From Eledone cirrhosa (taxonomy: Eukaryota): DNA of 64,000 nt. Shown in pieces: positions 7,064 through 54,014 of the stretch (position 1 is its first letter; every line of letters starts with the position of its first letter). The stretch covers positions 26,970,001 through 27,034,000 of the forward strand of contig OZ024763.1 in assembly GCA_964016885.1 (NCBI GenBank), read 5' to 3'. The position numbers were made by a program, and so were the translations under genes. The notes beneath the pieces are model-generated. The model did no database searches, was not told where the DNA came from, and was given only the letters and a program-made list of their open reading frames with translations.

Positions 7064-7099
7064 TCTTCTGATGAAGGACTAGCGTCCGAAACGTTAAGA
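7064..7099 (+). ncRNA. Minimal type-I hammerhead ribozyme (Penelope-like)
   Basis: TCTT-CTGATGA-A-GGAC-TAGC-GTCC-GAAA-CG-TT-AAGA: intact core, stems I and II, palindromic minimal stem III. Confidence 0.8.
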
Positions 7100-9962: not shown

Positions 9963-10023
9963 ATATATGTGTGATATTTGTAAATCAAACTTAACCTGCA
10001 GTATAGCAAATACTATTCGATTC

Positions 10024-10092
<69 letters not shown>

Positions 10093-10175
10093 AGGCAGCA
10101 GCTGTGTGTATGTGTACCCCCACCCACCCATATTTGTAAGGTATTCAGAAGTATTGATATGGAATCTGCTACAGG

Positions 10176-10893
10176 ATGGTGATGGTGATGGTGGTGGTCG
10201 TAATCATGATGGTGATGGTGATGGTGATGGTCGTGATGATGGTGATGGTGAATCATGATGGTGGTGATGGTGATGGTGATGGTGGTGATGGTGATGATGG
10301 TGATGGTGATGGTCGTGATGATGGTGATGGTGAATCATGATGGTGGTGATGGTGATGGTGATGGTGATGATGGTGATGGTGATGGTCGTGATGATGGTGA
10401 TGGTGAATCATGATGGTGGTGATGGTGATGGTGATGGTGGTGATGGTGATGGTGATGATGGTGATGGTGATCGTGATAGTGATGGTGATCATGATGATGA
10501 TGATGATGGTTGTGAAGATGATGGTGATGGTGAATCATGATGGTGATGGTGATGGTGAGCACGACGATGGTGATGGTGATGGTGGTGATGGTCATGGGGA
10601 TCGTGATAGTGATCGTGATGATGGTGATGGTTGTGATGATGATGGTGATGGTGAATCATGATGGTGCTGATGGTGGTGGTGGTGGTGATGGTGATCATGA
10701 TGGTGGTGATGGTGATGATGATGATGGTGATCATGATGATGATGATGGTGATGGTGACGATGGTGACGATGGTGGTGGTGACGATGTTAAATGGTGATGA
10801 TGGTGATGGTGATGATGATGATGGTGATGGTGATGATAGTGATGGTGATGATAGTGATGATGGTGATGATGGTGGTGATGGTGATGGTGATGA
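10176..10893. repeat. Degenerate (GAT/GGT)n and (GATGGT)n simple repeat
   Basis: Direct inspection. Recurrent GGTGAATCATGAT marks higher-order units. Confidence 0.95.
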
Positions 10894-11058
10894 TTTAGGA
10901 GATATTAATAGAGTGCAAATATTTACTAACAGATCCAAACACTATCAATTGTACAGATGTCACATAATTATCATTGATTGAAGTCTTAGTGGGACTGGCT
11001 CACTAAATTGTTATAATTGGTTAATTCCTTTCTAGAATTTGTCATGGTGTGTTGGCCC

Positions 11059-14000
11059 ACTGGTTAGAGTGTTAAGCTAGGGATGGTAAGGTAGTTGTCA
11101 CTGGTTTAGTGGTTTAGTGGTTAGAGTGTTAAGCGAGGGATGGTAAGGTAGTTGTCAGTGGTTTAGTGGTTTAGTGGTTAGAGTGTTAAGCGAGGGATGG
11201 TAAGGTAGTTGTCAGTGGTTTAGTGGTTTAGTGGTTAGAGTGTTAAGCTAGAGATGGTAAGGTAGTTGTCACTGGTTTAGTGGTTTAGTGGTTAGTGTTA
11301 AGCTAGAGATGGTAAGGTAGTTGTCAGTGGTTTAGTGGTTTAGTGGTTAGAGTGTTAAGCGAGGGATGGTAAGGTAGTTGTCAGTGGTTTAGTGGTATAG
11401 TGGTTAGAGTGTTAAGCGAGGGATGGTAAGGTAGTTGTCACTGGTTTAGTGGTTTAGTGGTTAGAGTGTTAAGTTAGAGATGGTAAGGTAGTTGTCACTG
11501 GTTTAGTGGTTTAGTGGTTAGTGTTAAGCTAGGGATGGTAAGGTAGTTGTCACTGGTTTAGTGGTTTAGTGGTTAGTGTTAAGCTAGGGATGGTAAGGTA
11601 GTTGTCACTGGTTTAGTGGTTTAGTGGTTAGAGTGTTAAGCGAGGGATGGTAAGGTAGTTGTCACTGGTTTAGTGGTTTAGTCGTTAGAGTGTTAAGTTA
11701 GAGATGGTAAGGTAGTTGTCAGTGGTTTAGTGGTTTAGTGGTTAGAGTGTTAAGCTAGAGATGGTAAGGTAGTTGTCAGTGGTTTTGTGGTTTAGTGGTT
11801 AGAGTGTTAAGCTAGAGATGGTAAGGTAGTTGTCAGTGGTTTAGTGGTTTAGTGGTTAGAGTGTTAAGCTAGAGATGGTAAGGTAGTTGTCAGTGGTTTT
11901 GTGGTTTAGTGGTTAGAGTGTTAAGCGAGGGATGGTAAGGTAGTTGTCACTGGTTTAGTGGTTTAGTGGTTAGAGTGTTAAGCGAGGGATGGTAAGGTAG
12001 TTGTCAGTGGTTTTGTGGTTTAGTGGTTAGAGTGTTAAGCGAGGGATGGTAAGGTAGTTGTCACTGGTTTAGTGGTTTAGTGGTTAGAGTGTTAAGCTAG
12101 AGATGGTAAGGTAGTTGTCAGTGGTTTAGTGGTTTAGTGGTTAGAGTGTTAAGCTAGAGATGGTAAGGTAGTTGTCACTGGTTTAGTGGTTTAGTGGTGA
12201 GAGTGTTAAGCGAGGGATGGTAAGGTAGTTGTCACTGGTTTAGTGGTTTAGTGGTTAGAGTGTTAAGTTAGAGATGGTAAGGTAGTTGTCAGTGGTTTAG
12301 TGGTTTAGTGGTTAGAGTGTTAAGCTAGGGATGGTAAGGTAGTTGTCACTGGTTTAGTGGTTTAGTGGTTAGAGTGTTAAGCTAGGGATGGTAAGGTAGT
12401 TGTCACTGGTTTAGTGGTTTAGTGGTTAGAGTGTTAAGCTAGGGATGGTAAGGTAGTTGTCAGTGGTTTAGTGGTTTAGTGGTTAGAGTGTTAAGCTAGA
12501 GATGGTAAGGTAGTTGTCAGTGGTTTAGTGGTTTAGTGGTTAGAGTGTTAAGCTAGGGATGGTAAGGTAGTTGTCAGTGGTTTAGTGGTTTAGTGGTTAG
12601 AGTGTTAAGCTAGGGATGGTAAGGTAGTTGTCACTGGTTTAGTGGTTTAGTGGTTAGAGTGTTAAGCTAGGGATGGTAAGGTAGTTGTCAGTGGTTTAGT
12701 GGTTTAGTGGTTAGAGTGTTAAGCTAGGGATGGTAAGGTAGTTGTCAGTGGTTTAGTGGTTTAGTGGTTAGAGTGTTAAGCGAGGGATGGTAAGGTAGTT
12801 GTCACTGGTTTAGTGGTTTAGTGGTTAGAGTGTTAAGCGAGGGATGGTAAGGTAGTTGTCACTGGTTTAGTGGTTTAGTGGTTAGAGTGTTAAGTTAGAG
12901 ATGGTAAGGTAGTTGTCAGTGGTTTAGTGGTTTAGTGGTTAGAGTGTTAAGCGAGGGATGGTAAGGTAGTTGTCACTGGTTTAGTGGTTTAGTGGTTAGA
13001 GTGTTAAGTTAGAGATGGTAAGGTAGTTGTCACTGGTTTAGTGGTTTAGTGGTTAGAGTGTTAAGTTAGAGATGGTAAGGTAGTTGTCAGTGGTTTAGTG
13101 GTTTAGTGGTTAGAGTGTTAAGTTAGAGATGGTAAGGTAGTTGTCAGTGGTTTAGTGGTTTAGTGGTTAGAGTGTTAAGCGAGGGATGGTAAGGTAGTTG
13201 TCACTGGTTTAGTGGTTTAGTGGTTAGAGTGTTAAGTTAGAGATGGTAAGGTAGTTGTCAGTGGTTTAGTGGTTTAGTGGTTAGAGTGTTAAGCGAGGGA
13301 TGGTAAGGTAGTTGTCACTGGTTTAGTGGTTTAGTGGTTAGAGTGTTAAGCGAGGGATGGTAAGGTAGTTGTCACTGGTTTAGTGGTTTAGTGGTTAGAG
13401 TGTTAAGTTAGAGATGGTAAGGTAGTTGTCAGTGGTTTAGTGGTTTAGTGGTTAGAGTGTTAAGCGAGGGATGGTAAGGTAGTTGTCACTGGTTTAGTGG
13501 TTTAGTGGTTAGAGTGTTAAGTTAGAGATGGTAAGGTAGTTGTCAGTGGTTTAGTGGTTTAGTGGTTAGAGTGTTAAGCGAGGGATGGTAAGGTAGTTGT
13601 CACTGGTTTAGTGGTTTAGTGGTTAGAGTGTTAAGTTAGAGATGGTAAGGTAGTTGTCAGTGGTTTAGTGGTTTAGTGGTTAGAGTGTTAAGCGAGGGAT
13701 GGTAAGGTAGTTGTCACTGGTTTAGTGGTTTAGTGGTTAGAGTGTTAAGCTAGAGATGGTAAGGTAGTTGTCACTGGTTTAGTGGTTTAGTGGTTAGAGT
13801 GTTAAGCTAGGGATGGTAAGGTAGTTGTCAGTGGTTTAGTGGTTTAGTGGTTAGAGTGTTAAGCTAGAGATGGTAAGGTAGTTGTCAGTGGTTTAGTGGT
13901 TTAGTGGTTAGAGTGTTAAGCTAGGGATGGTAAGGTAGTTGTCACTGGTTTAGTGGTTTAGTGGTTAGAGTGTTAAGTTAGAGATGGTAAGGTAGTTGTC

Positions 14001-17000
14001 AGTGGTTTTGTGGTTTAGTGGTTAGAGTGTTAAGCGAGGGATGGTAAGGTAGTTGTCACTGGTTTAGTGGTTTAGTGGTTAGAGTGTTAAGTTAGAGATG
14101 GTAAGGTAGTTGTCAGTGGTTTTGTGGTTTAGTGGTTAGAGTGTTAAGCGAGGGATGGTAAGGTAGTTGTCAGTGGTTTAGTGGTTTAGTGGTTAGAGTG
14201 TTAAGCTAGAGATGGTAAGGTAGTTGTCACTGGTTTAGTGGTTTAGTGGTTAGAGTGTTAAGCTAGGGATGGTAAGGTAGTTGTCAGTGGTTTAGTGGTT
14301 TAGTGGTTAGAGTGTTAAGCTAGAGATGGTAAGGTAGTTGTCAGTGGTTTAGTGGTTTAGTGGTTAGAGTGTTAAGCTAGGGATGGTAAGGTAGTTGTCA
14401 CTGGTTTAGTGGTTTAGTGGTTAGAGTGTTAAGCTAGGGATGGTAAGGTAGTTGTCACTGGTTTAGTGGTTTAGTGGTTAGAGTGTTAAGCTAGGGATGG
14501 TAAGGTAGTTGTCAGTGGTTTAGTGGTTTAGTGGTTAGAGTGTTAAGCTAGAGATGGTAAGGTAGTTGTCAGTGGTTTAGTGGTTTAGTGGTTAGAGTGT
14601 TAAGCTAGGGATGGTAAGGTAGTTGTCAGTGGTTTAGTGGTTTAGTGGTTAGAGTGTTAAGCTAGAGATGGTAAGGTAGTTGTCAGTGGTTTAGTGGTTT
14701 AGTGGTTAGAGTGTTAAGCGAGGGATGGTAAGGTAGTTGTCACTGGTTTAGTGGTTTAGTGGTTAGAGTGTTAAGCTAGAGATGGTAAGGTAGTTGTCAC
14801 TGGTTTAGTGGTTTAGTGGTTAGAGTGTTAAGCGAGGGATGGTAAGGTAGTTGTCAGTGGTTTTGTGGTTTAGTAGTTAGAGTGTTAAGCTAGGGATGGT
14901 AAGGTAGTTGTCACTGGTTTAGTGGTTTAGTGGTTAGAGTGTTAAGCGAGGGATGGTAAGGTAGTTGTCAGTGGTTTTGTGGTTTAGTGGTTAGAGTGTT
15001 AAGCTAGGGATGGTAAGGTAGTTGTCACTGGTTTAGTGGTTTAGTGGTTAGAGTGTTAAGCTAGAGATGGTAAGGTAGTTGTCAGTGGTTTTGTGGTTTA
15101 GTAGTTAGAGTGTTAAGTTAGAGATGGTAAGGTAGTTGTCACTGGTTTAGTGGTTTAGTAGTTAGAGTGTTAAGCTAGAGATGGTAAGGTAGTTGTCACT
15201 GGTTTAGTGGTTTAGTAGTTAGAGTGTTAAGCGAGGGATGGTAAGGTAGTTGTCACTGGTTTAGTGGTTAGAGTGTTAAGTTAGAGATGGTAAGGTAGTT
15301 GTCACTGGTTTAGTGGTTTAGTAGTTAGAGTGTTAAGCGAGGGATGGTAAGGTAGTTGTCACTGGTTTAGTGGTTTAGTGGTTAGAGTGTTAAGTTAGAG
15401 ATGGTAAGGTAGTTGTCACTGGTTTAGTGGTTTAGTAGTTAGAGTGTTAAGCGAGGGATGGTAAGGTAGTTGTCACTGGTTTAGTGGTTTAGTGGTTAGA
15501 GTGTTAAGCTAGAGATGGTAAGGTAGTTGTCACTGGTTTAGTGGTTTAGTGGTTAGAGTGTTAAGCTAGAGATGGTAAGGTAGTTGTCAGTGGTTTTGTG
15601 GTTTAGTAGTTAGAGTGTTAAGCGAGGGATGGTAAGGTAGTTGTCACTGGTTTAGTGGTTTAGTGGTTAGAGTGTTAAGTTAGAGATGGTAAGGTAGTTG
15701 TCAGTGGTTTTGTGGTTTAGTAGTTAGAGTGTTAAGCGAGGGATGGTAAGGTAGTTGTCACTGGTTTAGTGGTTTAGTAGTTAGAGTGTTAAGCGAGGGA
15801 TGGTAAGGTAGTTGTCACTGGTTTTGTGGTTTAGTGGTTAGAGTGTTAAGTTAGAGATGGTAAGGTAGTTGTCACTGGTTTAGTGGTTTAGTGGTTAGAG
15901 TGTTAAGCTAGGGATGGTAAGGTAGTTGTCACTGGTTTAGTGGTTTAGTGGTTAGAGTGTTAAGCGAGGGATGGTAAGGTAGTTGTCACTGGTTTAGTGG
16001 TTTAGTGGTTAGAGTGTTAAGTTAGAGATGGTAAGGTAGTTGTCACTGGTTTAGTGGTTAGAGTGTTAAGTTAGAGATGGTAAGGTAGTTGTCAGTGGTT
16101 TTGTGGTTTAGTGGTTAGAGTGTTAAGTTAGAGATGGTAAGGTAGTTGTCAGTGGTTTTGTGGTTTAGTGGTTAGAGTGTTAAGTTAGAGATGGTAAGGT
16201 AGTTGTCAGTGGTTTTGTGGTTTAGTGGTTAGAGTGTTAAGTTAGAGATGGTAAGGTAGTTGTCACTGGTTTAGTGGTTTAGTGGTTAGAGTGTTAAGCT
16301 AGGGATGGTAAGGTAGTTGTCACTGGTTTTGTGGTTTAGTGTTTAGAGTGTTAAGCTAGGGATGGTAAGGTAGTTGTCACTGGTTTAGTGGTTTAGTGGT
16401 TAGAGTGTTAAGCTAGAGATGGTAAGGTAGTTGTCAGTGGTTTTGTGGTTTAGTGGTTAGAGTGTTAAGCGAGGGATGGTAAGGTAGTTGTCACTGGTTT
16501 AGTGGTTTAGTGGTTAGAGTGTTAAGTTAGAGATGGTAAGGTAGTTGTCAGTGGTTTTGTGGTTTAGTGGTTAGAGTGTTAAGCGAGGGATGGTAAGGTA
16601 GTTGTCACTGGTTTAGTGGTTTAGTGGTTAGAGTGTTAAGCTAGGGATGGTAAGGTAGTTGTCACTGGTTTAGTGGTTTAGTGGTTAGAGTGTTAAGCTA
16701 GGGATGGTAAGGTAGTTGTCACTGGTTTAGTGGTTTAGTGGTTAGAGTGTTAAGTTAGAGATGGTAAGGTAGTTGTCAGTGGTTTTGTGGTTTAGTGGTT
16801 AGAGTGTTAAGCTAGAGATGGTAAGGTAGTTGTCAGTGGTTTAGTGGTTTAGTGGTTAGAGTGTTAAGCTAGGGATGGTAAGGTAGTTGTCAGTGTTTTG
16901 TGGTTTAGTAGTTAGAGTGTTAAGCTAGGGATGGTAAGGTAGTTGTCACTGGTTTAGTGGTTTAGTGGTTAGAGTGTTAAGCGAGGGATGGTAAGGTAGT

Positions 17001-20000
17001 TGTCAGTGGTTTAGTGGTTTAGTGGTTAGAGTGTTAAGTTAGAGATGGTAAGGTAGTTGTCAGTGGTTTAGTGGTTTAGTGGTTAGAGTGTTAAGTTAGA
17101 GATGGTAAGGTAGTTGTCAGTGGTTTTGTGGTTTAGTGGTTAGAGTGTTAAGTTAGAGATGGTAAGGTAGTTGTCAGTGGTTTTGTGGTTTAGTAGTTAG
17201 AGTGTTAAGTTAGAGATGGTAAGGTAGTTGTCAGTGGTTTAGTGGTTTAGTGGTTAGAGTGTTAAGTTAGAGATGGTAAGGTAGTTGTCACTGGTTTAGT
17301 GGTTTAGTGGTTAGAGTGTTAAGCTAGGGATGGTAAGGTAGTTGTCAGTGGTTTAGTGGTTTAGTGGTTAGAGTGTTAAGCTAGAGATGGTAAGGTAGTT
17401 GTCAGTGGTTTTGTGGTTTAGTGGTTAGAGTGTTAAGTTAGAGATGGTAAGGTAGTTGTCACTGGTTTAGTGGTTAGAGTGTTAAGTTAGAGATGGTAAG
17501 GTAGTTGTCAGTGGTTTTGTGGTTTAGTGGTTAGAGTGTTAAGCTAGGGATGGTAAGGTAGTTGTCAGTGTTTTGTGGTTTAGTAGTTAGAGTGTTAAGT
17601 TAGAGATGGTAAGGTAGTTGTCACTGGTTTAGTGGTTAGAGTGTTAAGTTAGAGATGGTAAGGTAGTTGTCAGTGGTTTTGTGGTTTAGTGGTTAGAGTG
17701 TTAAGCTAGGGATGGTAAGGTAGTTGTCACTGGTTTAGTGGTTTAGTGGTTAGAGTGTTAAGCGAGGGATGGTAAGGTAGTTGTCACTGGTTTAGTGGTT
17801 TAGTGGTTAGAGTGTTAAGTTAGAGATGGTAAGGTAGTTGTCACTGGTTTAGTGGTTTAGTGGTTAGAGTGTTAAGCTAGGGATGGTAAGGTAGTTGTCA
17901 CTGGTTTAGTGGTTTAGTGGTTAGAGTGTTAAGCGAGGGATGGTAAGGTAGTTGTCACTGGTTTAGTGGTTAGAGTGTTAAGTTAGAGATGGTAAGGTAG
18001 TTGTCACTGGTTTAGTGGTTAGAGTGTTAAGTTAGAGATGGTAAGGTAGTTGTCAGTGGTTTTGTGGTTTAGTGGTTAGAGTGTTAAGTTAGAGATGGTA
18101 AGGTAGTTGTCAGTGGTTTTGTGGTTTAGTGGTTAGAGTGTTAAGTTAGAGATGGTAAGGTAGTTGTCAGTGGTTTTGTGGTTTAGTAGTTAGAGTGTTA
18201 AGTTAGAGATGGTAAGGTAGTTGTCAGTGGTTTTGTGGTTTAGTGGTTAGAGTGTTAAGTTAGAGATGGTAAGGTAGTTGTCACTGGTTTAGTGGTTAGA
18301 GTGTTAAGTTAGAGATGGTAAGGTAGTTGTCACTGGTTTAGTGGTTAGAGTGTTAAGTTAGAGATGGTAAGGTAGTTGTCAGTGGTTTTGTGGTTTAGTG
18401 GTTAGAGTGTTAAGTTAGAGATGGTAAGGTAGTTGTCAGTGGTTTTGTGGTTTAGTGGTTAGAGTGTTAAGTTAGAGATGGTAAGGTAGTTGTCACTGGT
18501 TTAGTGGTTAGAGTGTTAAGTTAGAGATGGTAAGGTAGTTGTCACTGGTTTAGTGGTTAGAGTGTTAAGTTAGAGATGGTAAGGTAGTTGTCACTGGTTT
18601 AGTGGTTAGAGTGTTAAGTTAGAGATGGTAAGGTAGTTGTCACTGGTTTAGTGGTTAGAGTGTTAAGTTAGAGATGGTAAGGTAGTTGTCACTGGTTTAG
18701 TGGTTAGAGTGTTAAGTTAGAGATGGTAAGGTAGTTGTCACTGGTTTAGTGGTTAGAGTGTTAAGTTAGAGATGGTAAGGTAGTTGTCACTGGTTTAGTG
18801 GTTAGAGTGTTAAGTTAGAGATGGTAAGGTAGTTGTCACTGGTTTAGTGGTTTAGTGGTTAGAGTGTTAAGCTAGAGATGGTAAGGTAGTTGTCACTGGT
18901 TTTGTGGTTTAGTGGTTAGAGTGTTAAGTTAGAGATGGTAAGGTAGTTGTCAGTGGTTTTGTGGTTTAGTGGTTAGAGTGTTAAGTTAGAGATGGTAAGG
19001 TAGTTGTCAGTGGTTTAGTGGTTAGAGTGTTAAGTTAGAGATGGTAAGGTAGTTGTCACTGGTTTAGTGGTTAGAGTGTTAAGTTAGAGATGGTAAGGTA
19101 GTTGTCACTGGTTTAGTGGTTAGAGTGTTAAGTTAGAGATGGTAAGGTAGTTGTCACTGGTTTAGTGGTTAGAGTGTTAAGTTAGAGATGGTAAGGTAGT
19201 TGTCACTGGTTTAGTGGTTAGAGTGTTAAGTTAGAGATGGTAAGGTAGTTGTCACTGGTTTAGTGGTTAGAGTGTTAAGTTAGAGATGGTAAGGTAGTTG
19301 TCACTGGTTTAGTGGTTAGAGTGTTAAGTTAGAGATGGTAAGGTAGTTGTCACTGGTTTAGTGGTTTAGTGGTTAGAGTGTTAAGCGAGGAATGGTAAGG
19401 TAGTTGTCACTGGTTTAGTGGTTTAGTGGTTAGAGTGTTAAGCGAGGGATGGTAAGGTAGTTGTCACTGGTTTAGTGGTTTAGTGGTTAGAGTGTTAAGC
19501 GAGGAATGGTAAGGTAGTTGTCACTGGTTTAGTGGTTTAGTGGTTAGAGTGTTAAGCGAGGAATGGTAAGGTAGTTGTCACTGGTTTAGTGGTTTAGTGG
19601 TTAGAGTGTTAAGCGAGGGATGGTAAGGTAGTTGTCACTGGTTTAGTGGTTAGAGTGTTAAGCAAGGGATGGTAAGGTAGTTGTCACTCGTTTAGTGGTT
19701 AGAGTGTTAAGCGAGGGATGGTAAGGTAGTTGTCAGTGGTTTTGTGGTTTAGTGGTTAGAGTGTTAAGCGAGGGATGGTAAGGTAGTTGTCACTGGTTTA
19801 GTGGTTAGAGTGTTAAGCGAGGGATGGTAAGGTAGTTGTCACTGGTTTAGTGGTTAGAGTGTTAAGCGAGGGATGGTAAGGTAGTTGTCAGTAGTTTAGT
19901 GGTTAGAGTGTTAAGCGAGGGATGGTAAGGTAGTTGTCAGTGGTTTAGTGGTTTAGTGGTTAGAGTGTTAAGCTAGGGATGGTAAGGTAGTTGTCAGTGG

Positions 20001-22800: not shown

Positions 22801-23180
<380 letters not shown>

Positions 23181-30691: not shown

Positions 30692-31759
<1,068 letters not shown>

Positions 31760-31851: not shown

Positions 31852-31884
<33 letters not shown>

Positions 31885-32348
31885 CATACCACGTTCACAG
31901 TGTGGACTGGGAGGTTTTTACCGTGTTACCTACACGGCCACATTACAGCGTGGACTGTGTGTGTTTTTTGTCGTGACACCTACACGACCTCATTTGTTTC
32001 GGACTGGATGTTGTGGTACCAACATAACTTTACATTGGAAGGGGTGGTGTGGATGGGGTGGGGGTAGTGGGGCCGGGGTGTATTTTTGTTAGAGGTGTCT
32101 ACTGACTGTAGGTTTCGCTTTGTACTTATGTAAGGCGGGTCTTCTCTATGACTGTGTATCGCTTGGAGAGGTGTAAGTGTGTGAGGTTGGAATTTATCAA
32201 GTCGTCCCAGGTTTTTCTGGGTCTGCCTACTCCGTGGCTACCGTCTATTTTTATTGCCCTGCACTTTTTTTATACAGATGTCGTCTTTCATGCGCATCAC
32301 GTGACCATACCAACGTAGTCTTCTCTCGAGTAAACAGCATCTGATCCC

Positions 32349-35682: not shown

Positions 35683-35888
35683 ATAGGAACGAGTAGGACC
35701 CCAGCTTAGCGGAAAAGTCTGGATACGGCGTGGTAGGGTCGGAAAGTGCTCTACTACGGGAGTAGGAGCTAGATAACGAAGACCATAACGCACCAAAGTA
35801 CTCAATACTTAGGGTAGTAGAGTGGGTAATAGGAACGAGTAGGACCCCTGGGGGTCCACCTGGTTCTTTACCACATTTCCTTCGTTAT
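35683..35888 (-). mobile_element. Rearranged family-D element; two segments start at the predicted hammerhead cleavage site
   Basis: ATAGGAACGAGTAGGACCCC ends at 35702 and at 35848 and lacks the GACGGC continuation seen at 31313. Confidence 0.8.
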
Positions 35889-43171: not shown

Positions 43172-46100
43172 AGAGAGGAGTGAAACAAGAGAGAGGAGTG
43201 AAACAAGAGAGAGGAGGGAGAGAGGAATGAAACGAGAGGAAGGAGAGAGGAGTGAAAGAAGAGAGAGGAGGGAGAGAGGAATGAAACGAGAGGAAGGAGA
43301 GAGGAGTGAAAGAAGAGAGAGGAGTGAAAGAAGAGAGAGAGGAGGGAGAGAGTGAAACAAGAGTGAAAGAAGGGAGAGAGGAGTGAAACAAGAGAGAGGA
43401 GGGAGAGAGGAGTGAAACAAGAGAGAGGAGAGAGAGAGAGGAGGGAGAGAGGAGTGAAACAAGAGAGGAGGGAGAGAGGAGGGAGAGAGGAGGGAGAGAG
43501 GAGTGAAACAAGAGAGAGGAGGGAGAGAGGAGTGAAGCAAGAGAGAGGAGGGAGAGAGTGAAACAAGAGTGAAAGAAGGGAGAGAGGAGTGAAACAAGAG
43601 AGAGGAGGGAGAGAGGAGTGAAACAAGAGAGAGGAGGGAGAGAGGAGTGAAGCAAGAGAGAGGAGGGAGAGAGTGAAACAAGAGTGAAAGAAGGGAGAGA
43701 GGAGTGAAACAAGAGAGAGGAGGGAGAGAGGAGTGAAACAAGAGAGAGGAGGGAGAGAGGAGTGAAGCAAGAGAGAGGAGGGAGAGAGTGAAACAAGAGT
43801 GAAAGAAGGGAGAGAGGAGTGAAACAAGAGAGAGGAGGGAGAGAGGAGTGAAACAAGAGAGAGGGGGGAGAGAGGAGTGAAACAAGAGAGGAGGGAGAGA
43901 GGAGTGAAACAAGAGAGAGAGGAGGGAGAGAGGAGTGAAACAAGAGAGAGAGGAGAGAGAGGAGTGAAACAAGAGAGAGGAGAGAGAGGAGGGAGAGAGA
44001 AACAAGAGTGAAAGAAGGGAGAGAGGAGTGAAAGAAGGGAGAGAGGAGTGAAACAAGAGAGAGGAGGGAGAGAGGAGTGAAACAAGAGAGAGAGGAGGGA
44101 GAGGAGTGAAACAAGAGGGAGAGGAGGGGAGAGGAGTGAAACAAGAGAGGAGGGAGAGAGGAGTGAAACAAGAGAGAAGAGGGAGAGAGGAGTGAAACAA
44201 GAGAGAGGAGGGGAGAGGAGTGAAAGAAAAGAGAGAGGAGGGAGAGAGGAGTGAAAGAAAAGAGAGAGGAGGGAGAGAGGAGTGAAACAAGAGAGGAGGG
44301 AGAGAGGAGTGAAACAAGAGAGAGAGGAGGGAGAGGAGTGAAACAAGAGGGAGAGGAGGGAGAGGAGAGAGAGGAGTGAAACAAGAGAGAGAGGAGTGAA
44401 ACAAGAGAGAGGAGAGAGGAGGGAAGAGAGGAGTGAAACAAGAGAGGAGGGAGAGAGGAGTGAAACAAGAGTGAAACAAGAGAGAGGAGGGGAGAGGAGT
44501 GAAACAAAAGAGGAGGGAGCGAGCAGTGAGAGGAGGGAGAGAGGAGTGAAAGAAGAGAGAGAGGAGGGAGAGAGGAGTGAGAGGAGGGAGAGAGGAGTGA
44601 AAGAAAAGAGAGAGGAGTGAAAGGAGAGGAGTGAAAGAAGGGAGAGGAGGGAGAGAGGAATGAAAAAAGAGAGGAGGTAGAGAGGAATGAAACAAGAGAG
44701 GAGGTAGAGAGGAATGAAACAAGAGAGAGGAGGGAGAGGGAGAGGAGGGAAACAAGAGGAGGGAGAGGGAGAGAAACAACAGAGAAGAGGGAGAGAGGAG
44801 GGAGAGAGGAGTGAAACAAGAGAGAAGAGGGGGAGAGGAGTGAAACAAGAGAGGAATGAGAGAGGAGTGAAACAAGAGAGAGGAGAGAGAAGAAGGAGAG
44901 AGAGGAGGGAGAGAGGAGAGAGGAAAACAAGAGAGAATGGAGAGAGGATTGAAACGAGAGGAGGATACAGTGAAACAAGAAAGAGGGAGAGAGGAGTGAA
45001 ACAAGAGAGAAGAGGGAGAGAGGAGTAGAGGGAGAGAGGAGTGAAACAAGAGAGAAGAGGGAGAGGAGTGAAACAAGAGAGAGAGGAGGGAGAGAGGAGT
45101 GAAACAAGAGAGAGAGGAGGGAGAGAGGAGTGAAACAAGAGAGGAGGGAGAGAGGAGTGAAACAAGAGAGAGGAGGGAGTGGAGGGAGAGAGGAGTGGAG
45201 GGAGAGAGGAGTGGATCAAGAGAGAAGAGGGAGAGAGGAATGAAACAAGAGAGAGGAGTGAAAGAAGAGTGAAAGAAGAGAGAGGAGTGAAAGAAGAGAG
45301 AGAGGAGTGAAACAAGAGAGAGGAGGGAGAGAGAGGAGGGAGAGAGAGGAGGGAGAGAGGAGTGAAACAAGAGAGAGGAGGGAGAGAGAGGAGGGAGAGA
45401 GTGAAACAAGAGTGAAAGAAGGGAGAGAGGAGTGAAACAAGAGAGAGAGGAGGGAGAGAGGAGTGAAACAAGAGAGAGAGGAGTGAAAGGAGAGAGGAGG
45501 GAGAGAGGAGTGAAACAAGAGAGAAGAGGGAGAGAGGAGTGAAACAAGAGAGAGGAGGGAGAGGAGAGAGAGGAGTGAAACAAGAGGAGGGGAGAGGAGT
45601 GAAACAAAAGAGGAGGGAGCGAGCAGTGAGAGGAGGGAGAGAGGAGTGAAAGAAGAGAGAGAGGAGGGAGAGAGGAGTGAAAGAAGAGAGAGAGGAGGGA
45701 GAGAGGAGTGAAAGAAGAGAGAGAGGAGGGAGAGAGGAGTGAAAGAAGAGAGAGAGGAGGGAGAGAGGAGTGAAAGAAGAGAGAGAGGAAGGAAGAGAAT
45801 GAAACAAGAGAGAGAATGGAGAGAGGATTGAAACGAGGAGGAGAGAGGAGTGAAACAAGAAAGAGGGAGAGAGGCGTGAAACAAGAGAGAAGAGGGAGAG
45901 AGGCGTGAAACAAGAGAGAAGAGGGAGAGAGGAGTGAAACAAGAGAGAAGAGGGGGAGGAGTGAAACAAGAGAGAGAGGAGGGAAGAGAGGAGTGAAACA
46001 AGAGAGAGGAGGGAAGAGAGGAGTGAAACAAGAGAGAGAGGAGGGAGAGATGAGTGAAACAAGAGAGAGGAGGGAGAGAGGAGTGAAACAAGAGAGAGAT

Positions 46101-49100
46101 GAGTGAAACAAGAGAGAGGAGGGAGAGAGGAGTGAAACAAGAGAGAGAGGAGGGAGAGATGAGTGAAACAAGAGAGAAGAGGGAGAGAGGAGTGAAACAA
46201 GAGAGAGAGGAGTGAAACAAGAGAGAGAGGAGTGAAACAAGAGAGAAGAGGGGGAGAGGAGTGAAACAAGAGAGAGGAGGGGGAGGAAGGAGAGAAACAA
46301 GAGAGGAATGAGAGGAGTGAAACAAGAGAGAGGAGAGAGAAGGAGAGAGAGAGGAGGGAGAGAAACAAGAGAGAGAATGGAGAGAGGATTGAAACGAGAG
46401 GAGGAGAGAGGAGTGAAACAAGAAAGAGGGAGAGAGGCGTGAAACAAGAGATAAGAGGGAGAGAGGCGTGAAACAAGAGAGAAGAGGGAGAGAGGAGTGG
46501 AGGGAGAGAGGAGTGAAACAAGAGAGAAGAGGGAGAGATGAGTGAAACAAGAGAGAGAGGAGGGAGAGATGAGTGAAACAAGAGAGAGAGGAGTGAAAGG
46601 AGAGAGGAGGGAGAGAGGAGTGAAACAAGAGAGAAGAGGGAGAGAGGAGTGAAACAAGAGAGAGGAGGGAGAGGGGAGAGAGGAGTGAAACAAGAGGAGG
46701 GGAGAGGAGTGAAACAAAAGAGGAGGGAGCGAGCAGTGAGAGAGGAGTGAAAGAAGAGAGAGAGGAGGGAGAGAGGAGTGGAGGGAGAGAGGAGTGAAAC
46801 AAGAGAGAAGAGGGGGAGGAGTGAAACAAGAGAGAGAGGAGGGAAGAGGAGTGAAACAAGAGAGAGAGGAGGGAAGAGGAGTGAAACAAGAGAGAGAGGA
46901 GGGAAGAGAGGAGTGAAACAAGAGAGAGAGGAGGGAAGAGAGGAGTGAAACAAGAGAGAGAGGAGGGAAGAGAGGAGTGAAACAAGAGAGAGAGGAGGGA
47001 GAGATGAGTGAAACAAGAGAGAGGAGGGAGAGATGAGTGAAACAAGAGAGAGGAGGGAGAGATGAGTGAAACAAGAGAGAGGAGGGAGAGAGGAGTGAAA
47101 CAAGAGAGAGAGGAGTGAAACAAGAGAGAAGAGGGGGAGAGGAGTGAAACAAGAGAGAGGAGGGGGAGGAAGGAGAGAAACAAGAGAGGAATGAGAGGAG
47201 TGAAACAAGAGAGAGGAGAGAGAAGAAGGAGAGAGAGGAGGGAGAGAGGAGGGAGAGAAACAAGAGAGAGAATGGAGAGAGGATTGAAACGAGAGGAGGA
47301 GAGAGGAGTGAAACAAGAAAGAGGGAGAGAGGCGTGAAACAAGAGAGAAGAGGGAGAGAGGAATGAAACAAGAGAGAGGAGTGAAAGAAGAGTGAAAGAA
47401 GAGAGAGGAGTGAAAGAAGAGAGAGAGGAGTGAAACAAGAGAGAGGAGGGAGAGAGAGGAGGGAGAGAGAGGAGGGAGAGAGGAGTGAAACAAGAGAGAG
47501 GAGGGAGAGAGAGGAGGGAGAGAGTGAAACAAGAGTGAAAGAAGGGAGAGAGGAGTGAAACAAGAGAGAGAGGAGGGAGAGAGGAGTGAAACAAGAGAGA
47601 GAGGAGTGAAAGGAGAGAGGAGGGAGAGAGGAGTGAAACAAGAGAGAAGAGGGAGAGAGGAGTGAAACAAGAGAGAGGAGGGAGAGGAGAGAGAGGAGTG
47701 AAACAAGAGGAGGGGAGAGGAGTGAAACAAAAGAGGAGGGAGCGAGCAGTGAGAGGAGGGAGAGAGGAGTGAAAGAAGAGAGAGAGGAGGGAGAGAGGAG
47801 TGAAAGAAGAGAGAGAGGAGGGAGAGAGGAGTGAAAGAAGAGAGAGAGGAGGGAGAGAGGAGTGAAAGAAGAGAGAGAGGAGGGAGAGAGGAGTGAAAGA
47901 AGAGAGAGAGGAAGGAAGAGAATGAAACAAGAGAGAGAATGGAGAGAGGATTGAAACGAGGAGGAGAGAGGAGTGAAACAAGAAAGAGGGAGAGAGGCGT
48001 GAAACAAGAGAGAAGAGGGAGAGAGGAGTGGAGGGAGAGAGGAGTGAAACAAGAGAGAAGAGGGGAGGAGTGAAACAAGAGAGAGGAGGGAAGAGAGGAG
48101 TGAAACAAGAGAGAGAGGAGGGAGAGATGAGTGAAACAAGAGAGAGGAGAGAGAGAGGAGTGAAACAAGAGAGAGATGAGTGAAACAAGAGAGAGGAGGG
48201 AGAGAGGAGTGAAACAAGAGAGAGAGGAGGGAGAGATGAGTGAAACAAGAGAGAAGAGGGAGAGAGGAGTGAAACAAGAGAGAGAGGAGTGAAACAAGAG
48301 AGAGGAGGGGGAGGAGTGAAACAAGAGAGAGAGGAGGGAAGAGAGGAGTGAAACAAGAGAGAGAGGAGGGAAGAGAGGAGTGAAACAAGAGAGAGAGGAG
48401 GGAGAGAGGAGTGAAACAAGAGAGAGAGGAGGGAGAGAGGAGGGGAGAGGAGTGAAACAAAAGAGGAGGGAGCGAGCAGTGAGAGGAGGGAGAGAGGAGT
48501 GAAAGAAGAGAGAGAGGAGGGAGAGAGGAGTGAAAGAAGAGAGAGAGGAGGGAGAGAGGAGTGAAAGAAGAGAGAGAGGAGGGAGAGAGGAGTGAAAGAA
48601 GAGAGAGAATGGAGAGAGGATTGAAACGAGGAGGAGAGAGGAGTGAAACAAGAAAGAGGGAGAGAGGCGTGAAACAAGAGAGAAGAGGGAGAGAGGAGTG
48701 GAGGGAGAGAGGAGTGAAACAAGAGAGAAGAGGGGGAGGAGTGAAACAAGAGAGAGGAGGGAAGAGAGGAGTGAAACAAGAGAGAGAGGAGGGAGAGAGG
48801 AGTGAAACAAGAGAGAGGAGGGAGAGAGAGGAGGGAGAGAGTGAAACAAGAGAGAAGAGGGAGAGATGAGTGAAACAAGAGAGAGAGGAGGGAGAGAGGA
48901 GTGAAACAAGAGAGAGAGGAGTGAAAGGAGAGAGGAGGGAGAGAGGAGTGAAACAAGAGAGAAGAGGGAGAGAGGAGTGAAACAAGAGAGAGGAGGGAGA
49001 GGGGAGAGAGGAGTGAAACAAGAGGAGGGGAGAGGAGTGAAACAAAAGAGGAGGGAGCGAGCAGTGAGAGGAGGGAGAGAGGAGTGAAAGAAGAGAGAGA

Positions 49101-52100
49101 GGAGGGAGAGAGGAGTGAAAGAAGAGAGAGAGGAGGGAGAGAGGAGTGAAAGAAGAGAGAGAGGAAGGAAGAGAATGAAACAAGAGAGAGAATGGAGAGA
49201 GGATTGAAACGAGGAGGAGAGAGGAGTGAAACAAGAAAGAGGGAGAGAGGCGTGAAACAAGAGAGAAGAGGGAGAGAGGAGTGGAGGGAGAGAGGAGTGA
49301 AACAAGAGAGAAGAGGGGGAGGAGTGAAACAAGAGAGAGAGGAGGGAAGAGAGGAGTGAAACAAGAGAGAGAGGAGGGAAGAGAGGAGTGAAACAAGAGA
49401 GAGAGGAGTGAAAGGAGAGAGGAGGGAGAGAGGAGTGAAACAAGAGAGAAGAGGGAGAGAGGAGTGAAACAAGAGAGAGGAGGGAGAGGGGAGAGAGGAG
49501 TGAAACAAGAGGAGGGGAGAGGAGTGAAACAAAAGAGGAGGGAGCGAGCAGTGAGAGGAGGGAGAGAGGAGTGAAAGAAGAGAGAGAGGAGGGAGAGAGG
49601 AGTGAAAGAAGAGAGAGAGGAGGGAGAGAGGAGTGAAAGAAGAGAGAGAGGAGGGAGAGAGGAGTGAAAGAAGAGAGAGAGGAGGGAGAGAGGAGTGAAA
49701 GAAGAGAGAGAGGAGGGAGAGAGGAGTGAAAGAAGAGAGAGGAAGGAAGAGAATGAAACAAGAGAGAGAATGGAGAGAGGATTGAAACGAGGAGGAGAGA
49801 GGAGTGAAACAAGAAAGAGGGAGAGAGGCGTGAAACAAGAGAGAAGAGGGAGAGAGGAGTGGAGGGAGAGAGGAGTGAAACAAGAGAGAAGAGGGGGAGG
49901 AGTGAAACAAGAGAGAGGAGGGAAGAGAGGAGTGAAACAAGAGAGAGGAGGGAAGAGAGGAGTGAAACAAGAGAGAGAGGAGGGAGAGAGGAGTGAAACA
50001 AGAGAGAGGAGGGAGAGATGAGTGAAACAAGAGAGAGGAGGGAGAGAGGAGTGAAACCAGAGAGAGAGGAGGGAGAGATGAGTGAAACAAGAGAGAAGAG
50101 GGAGAGAGGAGTGAAACAAGAGAGAGAGGAGTGAAAGGAGAGAGGAGGGAGAGAGGAGTGAAACAAGAGAGAGGAGGGAGAGGGGAGAGAGGAGTGAAAC
50201 AAGAGGAGGGGAGAGGAGTGAAACAAAAGAGGAGGGAGCGAGCAGTGAGAGGAGGGAGAGAGGAGTGAAAGAAGAGAGAGAGGAGGGAGAGAGGAGTGAA
50301 AGGAGAGAGAGAGAAGGGAGAGAGGAGTGAAAGAAGAGAGAGAGGAGGGAGAGAGGAGTGAAAGAAGAGAGAGAGGAGGGAGAGAGGAGTGAAAGAAGAG
50401 AGAGGAAGGAAGAGAATGAAACAAGAGAGAGAATGGAGAGAGGATTGAAACGAGGAGGAGAGAGGAGTGAAACAAGAAAGAGGGAGAGAGGCGTGAAACA
50501 AGAGAGAAGAGGGAGAGAGGAGTGGAGGGAGAGAGGAGTGAAACAAGAGAGAAGAGGGGGAGGAGTGAAACAAGAGAGAGAGGAGTGAAAGGAGAGAGGA
50601 GGGAGAGAGGAGTGAAACAAGAGAGAGGAGGGAGAGAGGAGTGAAACAAGAGAGAGGAGGGAGAGAGGAGTGAAACAAGAGAGAAGAGGGAGAGAGGAGT
50701 GAAACAAGAGAGAGGAGGGAGAGGGGAGAGAGGAGTGAAACAAGAGGAGGGGAGAGGAGTGAAACAAAAGAGGAGGGAGCGAGCAGTGAGAGGAGGGAGA
50801 GAGGAGTGAAACAAGAGAGAGAGGAGGGAGAGATGAGTGAAACAAGAGAGAAGAGGGAGAGAGGAGTGAAACAAGAGAGAGAGGAGTGAAAGGAGAGAGG
50901 AGGGAGAGAGGAGTGAAACAAGAGAGAGGAGGGAGAGAGGAGTGAAACAAGAGAGAGGAGGGAGAGAGGAGTGAAACAAGAGAGAGGAGGGAGAGGGGAG
51001 AGAGGAGTGAAACAAGAGGAGGGGAGAGGAGTGAAACAAAAGAGGAGGGAGCGAGCAGTGAGAGGAGGGAGAGAGGAGTGAAAGAAGAGAGAGAGGAGGG
51101 AGAGAGGAGTGAAAGAAGAGAGAGAGGAGGGAGAGAGGAGTGAAAGAAGAGAGAGAGGAGGGAGAGAGGAGTGAAAGAAGAGAGAGAGGAGGGAGAGAGG
51201 AGTGAAAGAAGAGAGAGAGGAGGGAGAGAATGAAACAAGAGAGAGAATGGAGAGAGGATTGAAATGAGGAGGAGAGAGGAGTGAAACAAGAAAGAGGGAG
51301 AGAGGCGTGAAACAAGAGAGAAGAGGGAGAGATGAGTGAAACAAGAGAGAGGAGGGAGAGAGGAGTGAAACAAGAGAGGAGGGAGAGAGGAGTGAAACAA
51401 GAGAGAGGAGGGAGAGGAGTGGAGGGAGAGAGGAGTGGAGGGAGAGAGGAGTGGATCAAGAGAGAAGAGGGAGAGAAGAGTGAAACAAGAGGGAGAGAGG
51501 AGTGAACAAAGAGAGAGGGAAGGGAGAGGGGGAGAGAGGAGTGAAACCATAGAGAGAAGAGGGAGAGAAGAGTGAAAGAAGAGAGAGGGGAGGGAGAGAG
51601 GAGTGATAGAGGAGTGAAACAATAGAGAGGGGAGGGAGAGGGGAGGGAGAGGAAGGGAGAGGGGGAGGAAGAGAGGAGTGAAACAAGAGAGAGGAGAGAG
51701 AGAGGAGGGAGAGAGGAGTGAAACAAGAGAGAGGAGGGAGTGGAGGGAGAGAGGAGTGGATCAAGAGAGAAGAGGGAGGAGTGAAACAAGAGAGAGGAGG
51801 GAGAGAGGAGTAAAACAAGAGAGAGAGGAGGGAGAGGATAGAAACGAGAGAGGAGGAGGGAGAGAGAGAGGAATGAAACAAGAGAGAGGAGGGAGAGAGA
51901 GAGGAATGAAACAAGAGAGAGGAGGGAGAGAGAGGAGGGAGGGAGGAGTGAAACAAGAGAGGGGAGGAGGGAGAGAGAAGGGAGAGGGGAGGGAGAGGGG
52001 AGTGACACGAGAGAGAAGAGGGAGAGAGGAGTGAAACAAGAGGGAGAGAGGAGTGAACAAACAGAGAGGAGGGAGAGAGGAGTGAAAAAGAGAGGGAGGG

Positions 52101-53110
52101 AGAGAGGAGTGAGAGGAGAGAGAGGAGTGAAAGAAGGGAGAAAGGAGAGATGTGTGAAACACGAGAGAGAAGAGGGAGAGAGGAGTGAAACAAGAGAGAG
52201 GGGAGGGAAGGGAGAGGGGGAGGGAGAGGGGGAGGGAGAGAGGAGTGAAACGAGAGGGGAGGGAGAGGGGGAGGGAGAGAGGAGTGAAACAAGAGAGAAG
52301 AGGGAGAGAGGAGGGAAACAAGAGAGAGGGAGGGAGAGAGGAGTGAAAGGAGAGAGAGGAGGGAGAGAGGAGTGAAAGAAGAGATGAGGGAGAGAGGAGG
52401 GAGAGAGGTGGGAAACAAGGGAGAGGGGAGGGAGAAAGGTGTGAAACACGAGAGAGAATAGGGAGAGAGGAGGGATAGAGGAGTGAAACAATAGAGAGGG
52501 GAGGGAGAGGAAGGGAGAGGGGGAGGGAGAGAGGAGTGAAACAAGAGAGAAGAGGGAGAGAAGAGTGAAAGAAGAGAGATGAGGGAGAGAGGAGGGAGAG
52601 AGAAGTGGAAGAAGAGAGAGAGGAGGGAGAGATGAGTGGAAGAAGAGAGAGGAGGGAGAGATGAGTGAAACAAGAGAGAGGGGAGGGAGAGATGAGTGAA
52701 ACAGAGAGAGGGAGAGAGGAGAGGGAGAGGGAGAGAGGAGTGAAACAAGAGAGAGGGGAGGGAGAGGAGTGAAACAAGAAAGAGGGGAGGGGAGGGAGAG
52801 AGGAGTGAAACAAGAGAGAGAGGAGGGAGAGAGGAGTGAAACAAGAAAGAGGAGGGAGAGAGGAGTGAGAGGAGGGAGAGAGGAGGGAAACAAGAGAGAG
52901 GCGTGAGAAAGGAAGGAAACAAGAGAGAGGAGGGAGGGAGGAGTGAAACAAGAGAGAGAGGAGGGAGAGAGGAGTGAAACAAGAAAGGAGGGAGAGAGGA
53001 GGGAGAGAGGATTGAAACAAGAGAGAGGGGAGGGGGGGGAGTGAAACAAGAGAGAGATGAGGGAGAGAATAGAGAGAGGAGGGAGAGAATAGAGAGAGGA
53101 GAGAGGGGGG
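43172..53110. repeat. ~10-kb polypurine/polypyrimidine minisatellite (core GAGAGAGGAGGGAGAGAGGAGTGAAACAA) with higher-order blocks
   Basis: The + strand is almost entirely A/G. Marker motifs GAGCGAGCAGTGAG and AATGGAGAGAGGATTGAAA each recur about ten times. Confidence 0.97.
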
Positions 53111-53118
53111 AGACTTAC

Positions 53119-53191
53119 CTTTTTGTGATGTCAAATAAAGTTTGACAGTTCTTTTAGATTTTACAATAATAGGAATGGTTCGACATGATAA
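53119..53191 (-). CDS. Candidate 73-nt internal exon of an unidentified host gene (LSCRTIPIIVKSKRTVKLYLTSQK)
   Basis: Minus strand: pyrimidine-rich tract + TGTAG acceptor, one open frame, AAG|GTAAGT consensus donor. Confidence 0.4.
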
Positions 53192-53225
53192 CTACACAAG
53201 ATAGAAAATATACAGAAACTAATAT

Positions 53226-53378
53226 AATTGTTTCTACTTTTGGCACAAGTCCAGCAATTACCCACTGGTAATTTATTTTATCGATCCCGTAAGAATGAAA
53301 GACAGTTAACCTCGGCCGGATTTGAACTCAGAATGGAAAGGGGCGTAATTCTATGCGTCAAAGCATGGGGTTCGACGG
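53226..53378 (-). mobile_element. SINE family B, diverged
   Basis: Homology to 6749-6940. Confidence 0.78.
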
Positions 53379-54014
53379 TGTAGTGTGGTGATATGTGTGG
53401 TGATGTGTGTGGTGTGGTGTGTAGAAGGTGATTGTGTGGTGTGCTGTGTAGAAGGTAATGTGCGTTGTGTAGTGTGTAGAGTGTGGTGTGTAGAGTATAA
53501 TGTGTAGTGAGTGATGTGTAGAGCATAATGTGTGGTGAGTGATGTGTATGTCGTGATGAGTGATGTGTATGGCGTGGTGTGTGAGTACATGTGTGGAGTA
53601 TGTGGTGTGTAACGAGGGTGTGGTGTAATTGTGTGTATGTGTGAGTGTTTAATGTGCTGTGTTAATGAGTGGACTGGAGTAAAAAGGAGTCACACAATCT
53701 TTAAAAGACCCTAAATTAACTTGCCCTAATTACTATATATACTCAATCATAAGCCGATCCCTTTTATATTTGAGAAATAGGACAGAATCCAAACCCCATT
53801 TATAAGCCATGGTGGCTAATCAACAGACGACAGTTTTGAAATTCTCACGAGTGGAGAATATATTTATGAAGTTTTAATATTTTGATATTTAAAATGTTTT
53901 AAGTGTCATTTAGAGTATAGTTTTTATTTCACTTCTTTATGTAATGAGTTACCATTTTCTGATTGATTTCAAGGCCATATTCATTAAAATCATCAAATAT
54001 AATAGCAAATATAA

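Follow-up and report, generated by a model that had tools for sequence, protein, structure and literature searches.

Genomic copies of a Penelope-like retrotransposon in Eledone cirrhosa that begin at the predicted cut of its hammerhead ribozyme, and U6 snRNA joined at the predicted cut in several hammerhead-bearing families

The function of hammerhead ribozymes in Penelope-like retrotransposons has been called unclear (PMC8557442), and the available parts of that paper report no copies ending at the ribozyme's cut for elements of the Hydra clade. For the anole Poseidon element studied in vitro, the accessible text of PMC11167929 describes two internal copying starts that define the tail, extension of both DNA strands and a hammerhead just upstream, all of which are shared with the element described here; in that system, RNA that had not been cut served as the main substrate and none of the RNA reads started at the cut, according to the sections available, whereas here a few percent of genomic copies do start at it. 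Fig. S2 of the same paper plots genomic ends and may bear on the novelty of what follows. In the passages of the relevant papers that we draw on, two other systems are precedents for cut-site ends and for U6 joins. In the R2 retrotransposon, as in our case, a ribozyme cut (by an HDV-like ribozyme) sets the 5′ end of the RNA and is visible in genomic 5′ junctions (PMC3774820); both the ribozyme and the class of element are different, and the R2 cut makes the normal 5′ end, whereas it makes a minor class here. The U6/LINE-1 chimeras made by RtcB (PMC6789731) also consist of U6 with a short T run, joined without overlap and copied into DNA, but in our examples U6 is accepted, across many families, at a fixed bond predicted from the ribozyme, and both arms of an inverted insertion can carry the chimera. 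In a literature search that covered titles and abstract openings of openly accessible papers, we found no report of cut-site copy ends or U6 joins for Penelope elements.

The window that we analysed is a stretch of 64,000 nucleotides of the Eledone cirrhosa genome (contig OZ024763.1, positions 26,970,001 to 27,034,000), and it contains several copies of a repeat that we call family D. A sequence-only reading of this DNA had pointed to two segments that stop at GGACCCC, at 35702 and 35848, exactly where a ribozyme was predicted to cut, and had proposed that they were reverse-transcribed from the 3′ product of self-cleavage. We use a scale on which 0 denotes an arm that has all four G and nothing upstream of the predicted cut; for arm ends, +n means n bases upstream of the cut, and for the pieces of the window copy it means n bases downstream. 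The family-D features in the window are as follows.

35683..35702, minus strand: short arm, element +1 to +17 (35702-35686), then (TA)n; begins exactly at the predicted cut
35703..35848, minus strand: second piece, entered after a jump and covering element +1 to +170 minus 24 nt (+68 to +91), from alignment to the full unit L091
35849..35852, no strand: TGGG, four letters without a template at that place
35853..35888, plus strand: inverted tail arm, element +65 to +100, with (TA)n at its end
31571..31722, plus strand: ordinary short copy of the major class, consisting of a T run, the 3′ half of the hammerhead and the tail
31214..31365, minus strand: second ordinary short copy, of the same extent as the copy at 31571..31722 but on the opposite strand
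22900..22961, minus strand: lone short arm in (TA)n, from ~41 nt upstream of the cut to +17

Both segments follow the family sequence as far as the GGACCCC ends that had been claimed for them and diverge there, so that the second piece, too, begins exactly at the predicted cut (35848). On the plus strand, the pieces read (TA)n, +17 to +1, a jump, +170 to +1 with the 24-nt deletion, TGGG, inverted +65 to +100, and (TA)n again. Positions 35703-35781 of the second piece correspond to the leader upstream of the first ATG of the open reading frame. The suggestion that the two junctions had a single origin agrees with this alignment: 35683-35888 is a single Penelope-like insertion in which two pieces stop at the predicted cut of the hammerhead, and because both belong to one insertion they are not independent observations. 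The two stops could have arisen in that one event either because the enzyme jumped or because two cut RNAs had been ligated to each other. The added G run of the TGGG gives the third piece a GGGGTCC start like that of the cut end, perhaps reflecting a slip between two similar motifs. The ordinary copy at 31571..31722 includes the 3′ strand of stem II, GAAA at 31601-31604 (as had been read), stem III and the predicted cut (31623/31624); the 5′ half of the hammerhead core is missing from it.

Family D is, judging from its motifs, the terminal repeat of a Penelope-like retrotransposon of the Hydra-clade type. When a 146-nt query was searched against the 3.0-Gb genome (967 candidates, 40 of them scored), most of the 30 loci that we read were inverted pairs in (TA)n, with one arm stopping 17 nt behind the cut and the other ~100 nt behind it. 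Searching with the unique middle part of the window copy revealed tandem units of ~3531 bp. The full, tandemly arranged unit of 3531 bp contains a 784-codon open frame whose translation includes YRDD and a VIY...YIG stretch, which we read as a reverse transcriptase with a C-terminal GIY-YIG nuclease; Pfam and PDB sequence searches with this protein gave no significant match, and the assignment therefore rests on motifs. Others are DKT, RWR, CNCPDRSIC (CxCX5C), CNLC (CxxC) and CKH (CxH), and CCHH is absent. As far as the available text of PMC8557442 describes them, the C-terminal-endonuclease elements of the Hydra clade share the single ORF, the RW-basic motif plus DKT, the CxCX5C linker, CxxC and CxH, the absence of CCHH, and a hammerhead inside the repeat; their structural traits (tandem and inverted repeats, a tail, and (TA)n targets) are likewise all found here. 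The element described here differs from them in having RWR rather than RWK, a length of 3.5 kb rather than <3 kb, and a U3-A8 core plus a long stem II. Both the element and its ribozyme type are kinds already known. Two other identities were rejected: a non-LTR retrozyme would consist of short non-coding tandem hammerhead units, whereas the parent unit is 3531 bp long and coding, and a DNA transposon or MITE with terminal inverted repeats does not fit with inner arm ends that vary or with a sequence that is part of a reverse-transcriptase-coding unit. Elsewhere (L033-L039, G000:C2:356.03 Mb), we noted tandem 299-bp units derived from the element that carry a hammerhead with a shortened stem II, a retrozyme-like derivative.

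Full copies contain the 5′ half that is missing from the window copies, and it had been predicted to comprise a CCCC stem and a CTGANGA box. The CCCC stem is there, but the core reads TTGAGAA or CTGAGAA instead: among the first 30 whole copies read, 25 have TTGAGAA (U3-A8), 5 have CTGAGAA (a C3/A8 mismatch) and none has the canonical CTGANGA box. The order in full copies is GGAATTACCCC, TTGAGAA, a long stem II, GAAA, stem III, GTC and GGGGT, and 3124 genomic copies match a flanking pattern for the whole hammerhead exactly. Full copies thus carry a complete predicted type I hammerhead with a U3-A8 core, having three stems around that core and NUH at the cut, and are predicted to cleave themselves. 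The 113-nt motif is predicted to adopt the three-way hammerhead junction as its lowest-energy fold, which is no more stable than those of shuffled sequences (z = -0.49). Rfam returned no hammerhead match for the full repeat, and none for the window among the matches listed (150 of 177), which gave low-complexity miRNA-like matches only. The U3-A8 core is a known variant from the Schistosoma Cercyon elements (PMC4209133, as described in the part available), where the same core covariation is found, also in a Penelope repeat; the Cercyon hammerheads are minimal motifs, whereas the element here has long stems II and III. The C3/A8 core mismatch occurs in several copies of part of an older subfamily (L153-L182), and this lineage, whose ribozyme is likely weak, still spread. 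We looked for a weaker cut-site peak by comparing the U3-A8 and C3/A8 subfamilies, without a linked marker, and found 37:31 against 46:54 (p = 0.35). Two identical minimal canonical hammerheads of another family (CTGATGA, GAAA, a GTT cut and a 4-bp stem I) lie at 7068 and 20972 of the window.

Copy ends across the genome show a peak at the predicted cut. Searching for arms that depart from the family sequence gave 458 end matches at 0, 409 at -1 and 372 at +2. Inspection by eye of the initial 100 rows in each set identified 68, 21 and 12 true breaks, respectively (in the remainder, the family sequence resumes after a change), which scales up to an estimated ~311, ~86 and ~45 tail-arm breaks relative to GTC|GGGG. 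These genome-wide counts cover 0, -1 and +2, and the count at 0 excludes blunt CCCCGGGG joins. Short arms at the cut add 388 matches, with ~72 true breaks in the first 100 by eye. Ends were also computed for 100 of the 10,353 tail arms, namely the first in a list that required A or T at a single downstream position; all of them lie within the initial 54 Mb of C1. In this sample, 3 arms end at -6 or -5, 4 at -1, 5 at 0, 12 at +1 to +32, 57 at +35 to +47 and 19 beyond +69. Stops at the cut itself (5 of 93 arms at risk) compare with 12 across the next 34 bases (p = 4e-5). The cut-site peak is one base wide and minor, comprising ~3-5% of arms. The sharp truncation peak at GTC|GGGG expected by the sequence-only reading is thus present to the base, but it is overshadowed by the class at +35 to +47.

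The peak could in principle reflect not a cut but a property of intact RNA, with copying stalling or ends joining at the run of G residues or at the foot of stem III, or through CCCC/GGGG microhomology. There are indeed four G next to the cut, and among the first 100 of 455 short inverted junctions read by eye, 21 have both arms at 0 plus a linker and 15 are blunt CCCCGGGG joins, those 15 being ambiguous (they are blunt or overlap by CG); microhomology exists at some of the ends at 0, and a minority of partner arms cross the cut, as described below. Yet the excess at the cut persists in linker-bearing junctions, where there is no overlap: the 45 such junctions have 90 arm ends, of which 56 fall at 0, 6 at -1 and 5 beyond the cut (by eye). 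Moreover, +2, at the foot of stem III, has only about one seventh of the ends, and in other families U6 is joined at cuts that are followed by AAGG, AAAA, ATAT, ACT or GAAT rather than by four G. We therefore consider stalling or microhomology without self-cleavage improbable. The pieces in the window very probably stop where they do because their RNA template had cleaved itself there, which would mean that the ribozyme is active in cells.

The majority class, the 57 sampled arms that end 35-47 nt upstream of the cut, appears to have a different origin. Added letters were counted in 216 arms, a non-random set drawn from all loci retrieved, in which part of the C is due to microhomology: an added C was found in 15 of 24 arms at +41, compared with 14 of 130 arms ending elsewhere between +35 and +46, and an added A in 22 of 23 arms at +44. 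Copying of the cap by reverse transcription yields an extra G on the RNA. Because the added C fits such an extra G, we read the +41 end as a start site, and the major end is likely a capped transcription start inside stem II. A splice acceptor was rejected as the source of the +40 ends, since no common sequence follows them.

The two arms of an insertion tend to end together. For the 68 true breaks at 0, the partner arm ends at 0 in 30 cases, inside the cut in 15 and across it in 8 (by eye), while 11 partners continue into (TA)n or flanking DNA and 4 are lost from view after a jump; that is, 45 of the 53 visible partners of cut-site tail arms stop at or inside the cut, and the 8 that cross it are a counterpoint to our reading. 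In the computed sample, only 4 of 56 second arms end at 0, and all four are paired with a tail arm at 0 or -1; major-class arms of one insertion likewise end close together. Three insertions have an identical foreign junction in both arms. This pairing fits a model in which a single RNA is the template for both arms of an insertion, and the blunt and one-letter joins count against fold-back priming.

These patterns suggest the following scheme. Most RNAs would start ~41-45 nt upstream of the cut, within stem II; lacking the core, they could not cut and would give rise to the common 140-nt copies. Read-through RNAs would contain the whole hammerhead, and some of them would cut. The 3′ cleavage product would retain both copying start points, +17 and ~+100, and the enzyme could therefore copy it from both cut DNA strands. 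On reaching the new 5′ end, the enzyme would run off and then add letters, slip, jump to another RNA or join the other arm. The 5′-OH end might also first be ligated, in an RtcB-type reaction, to RNAs with a cyclic phosphate such as U6, and the chimera then copied into both arms.

The last step is suggested by a family-D insertion (L238) in which both arms run from the cut into the 3′ end of U6. Exact matches to the U6 end number 89 genome-wide, 30 in one array and 59 dispersed. The array (L384, G000:C19:31.78-31.84 Mb) has ~30 U6 copies spaced ~1.8 kb apart and likely represents the genes. Of the dispersed ends, 50 of 59 were examined in sequence, and the other 9 resemble short interspersed repeats by their listed letters. 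Rfam (RF00026) confirms U6 in 6 of 12 loci scanned; the short fragment in L238 and L270 falls below its threshold and matches the U6 3′ end by sequence. We tested 17 chimeras, chosen as Penelope-like or unplaced; dispersed U6 ends outside this set are joined to short repeats, other elements or plain flank (in L377, the downstream DNA is single copy). For 11 of the 17, which represent 8 families, a script located in sister copies a complete hammerhead whose predicted cut coincides exactly with the U6 junction, with five of them (L284, L286, L288, L289 and L378) placed from 1-2 sister copies each; in the register control, there were at most 2 hammerhead hits at any shift of 1-5 bases. Three further chimeras (L280, L379 and L383) fit by eye only, bringing the total to 14 of 17, although the family search for L280 mostly returned a neighbouring repeat. 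In L271, U6 is one base off and there is no core, and no hammerhead was found in the sister copies of L282 and L381 (the DNA downstream of L282 is a repeat). All 17 tested junctions have five T at the U6 end, that is, the mature 3′ end joined without overlap.

Several of the U6 junctions lie in unusual contexts. In the L287 family (L061, L375), GCAA replaces GAAA in the hammerhead, and U6 is nonetheless at the exact cut. The L289/L378 family (L088, L410) has a U3-A8 hammerhead with a 45-60-nt insertion in stem III, and two separate U6 chimeras at the cut. L274, L278 and L370 have one common U6 junction in another repeat, with no hammerhead there. L271 and window positions ~31880-32060 belong to a repeat that has GAAA, a stem and GTA but no recognisable core, with U6 joined a single base behind GTA, and this repeat is possibly a permuted hammerhead.

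RtcB joins the cyclic phosphate of U6 only to a 5′-OH end (PMC6789731) and ligates hammerhead products in vitro (PMC7229834), according to the parts of these papers available, and U6 at the cut fits ligation to a 5′-OH end. A competing account leaves the cleavage as it is and alters only the ligation step: the RNA was cut, and U6 and the other pieces were added when the reverse transcriptase jumped between templates. Such jumps are in fact observed: from the cut, some copies continue into poly(A), a fragment of a repeat or fragments of the element. They could explain some chimeras; L231 carries the added piece in just one of its arms, and there is slippage at the end of L229, with its last ten bases repeated. 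(There and at G000:C2:179753207, the last ~ten bases before the cut end are copied several times, which resembles repeat addition at a template end.) Template jumping does not readily account for the same U6 junction in both arms of L238, L289 and L299, for the five T at every tested junction, or for the placement of family D's sole U6 chimera at the minor cut-site end rather than at the major end. We regard it as a serious but unlikely alternative, and ligation of U6 before copying into DNA as the probable order of events.

The 5′ end at the cut base could also have been produced by a host nuclease or by a second transcription start. Host nucleases too leave 5′-OH ends (PMC6789731, in the part available), but the end coincides with the hammerhead-predicted bond in 8 families that differ in sequence around the cut, making this explanation even less credible than stalling on uncut RNA. 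The original proposal of reverse transcription from the 3′ product of self-cleavage is thus strengthened by the 5′ half in full copies, the one-base peak and the U6 joins, from which we infer the cleavage. The wider picture, that Penelope hammerheads cut in the germ line, that a host RNA ligase captures their 5′-OH products, that both inverted arms come from one RNA and that genomes record this activity, seems to us somewhat favoured.

Base-exact copy ends and U6 junctions would thus amount to evidence, read from inherited DNA, for cutting by Penelope hammerheads in cells, with the cut RNA supplying only a few percent of insertions, and the paired arm ends offer a testable handle on the origin of the inverted Penelope structure. 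If this is true, the genomic record could confirm unusual cores, among them U3-A8, GCAA and those with very long stems II or III, with no assay needed. Separately, positions 10001-20000 and 44001-54000 of the window have a very strong GC skew (0.7-0.9) and are likely simple-sequence satellites.
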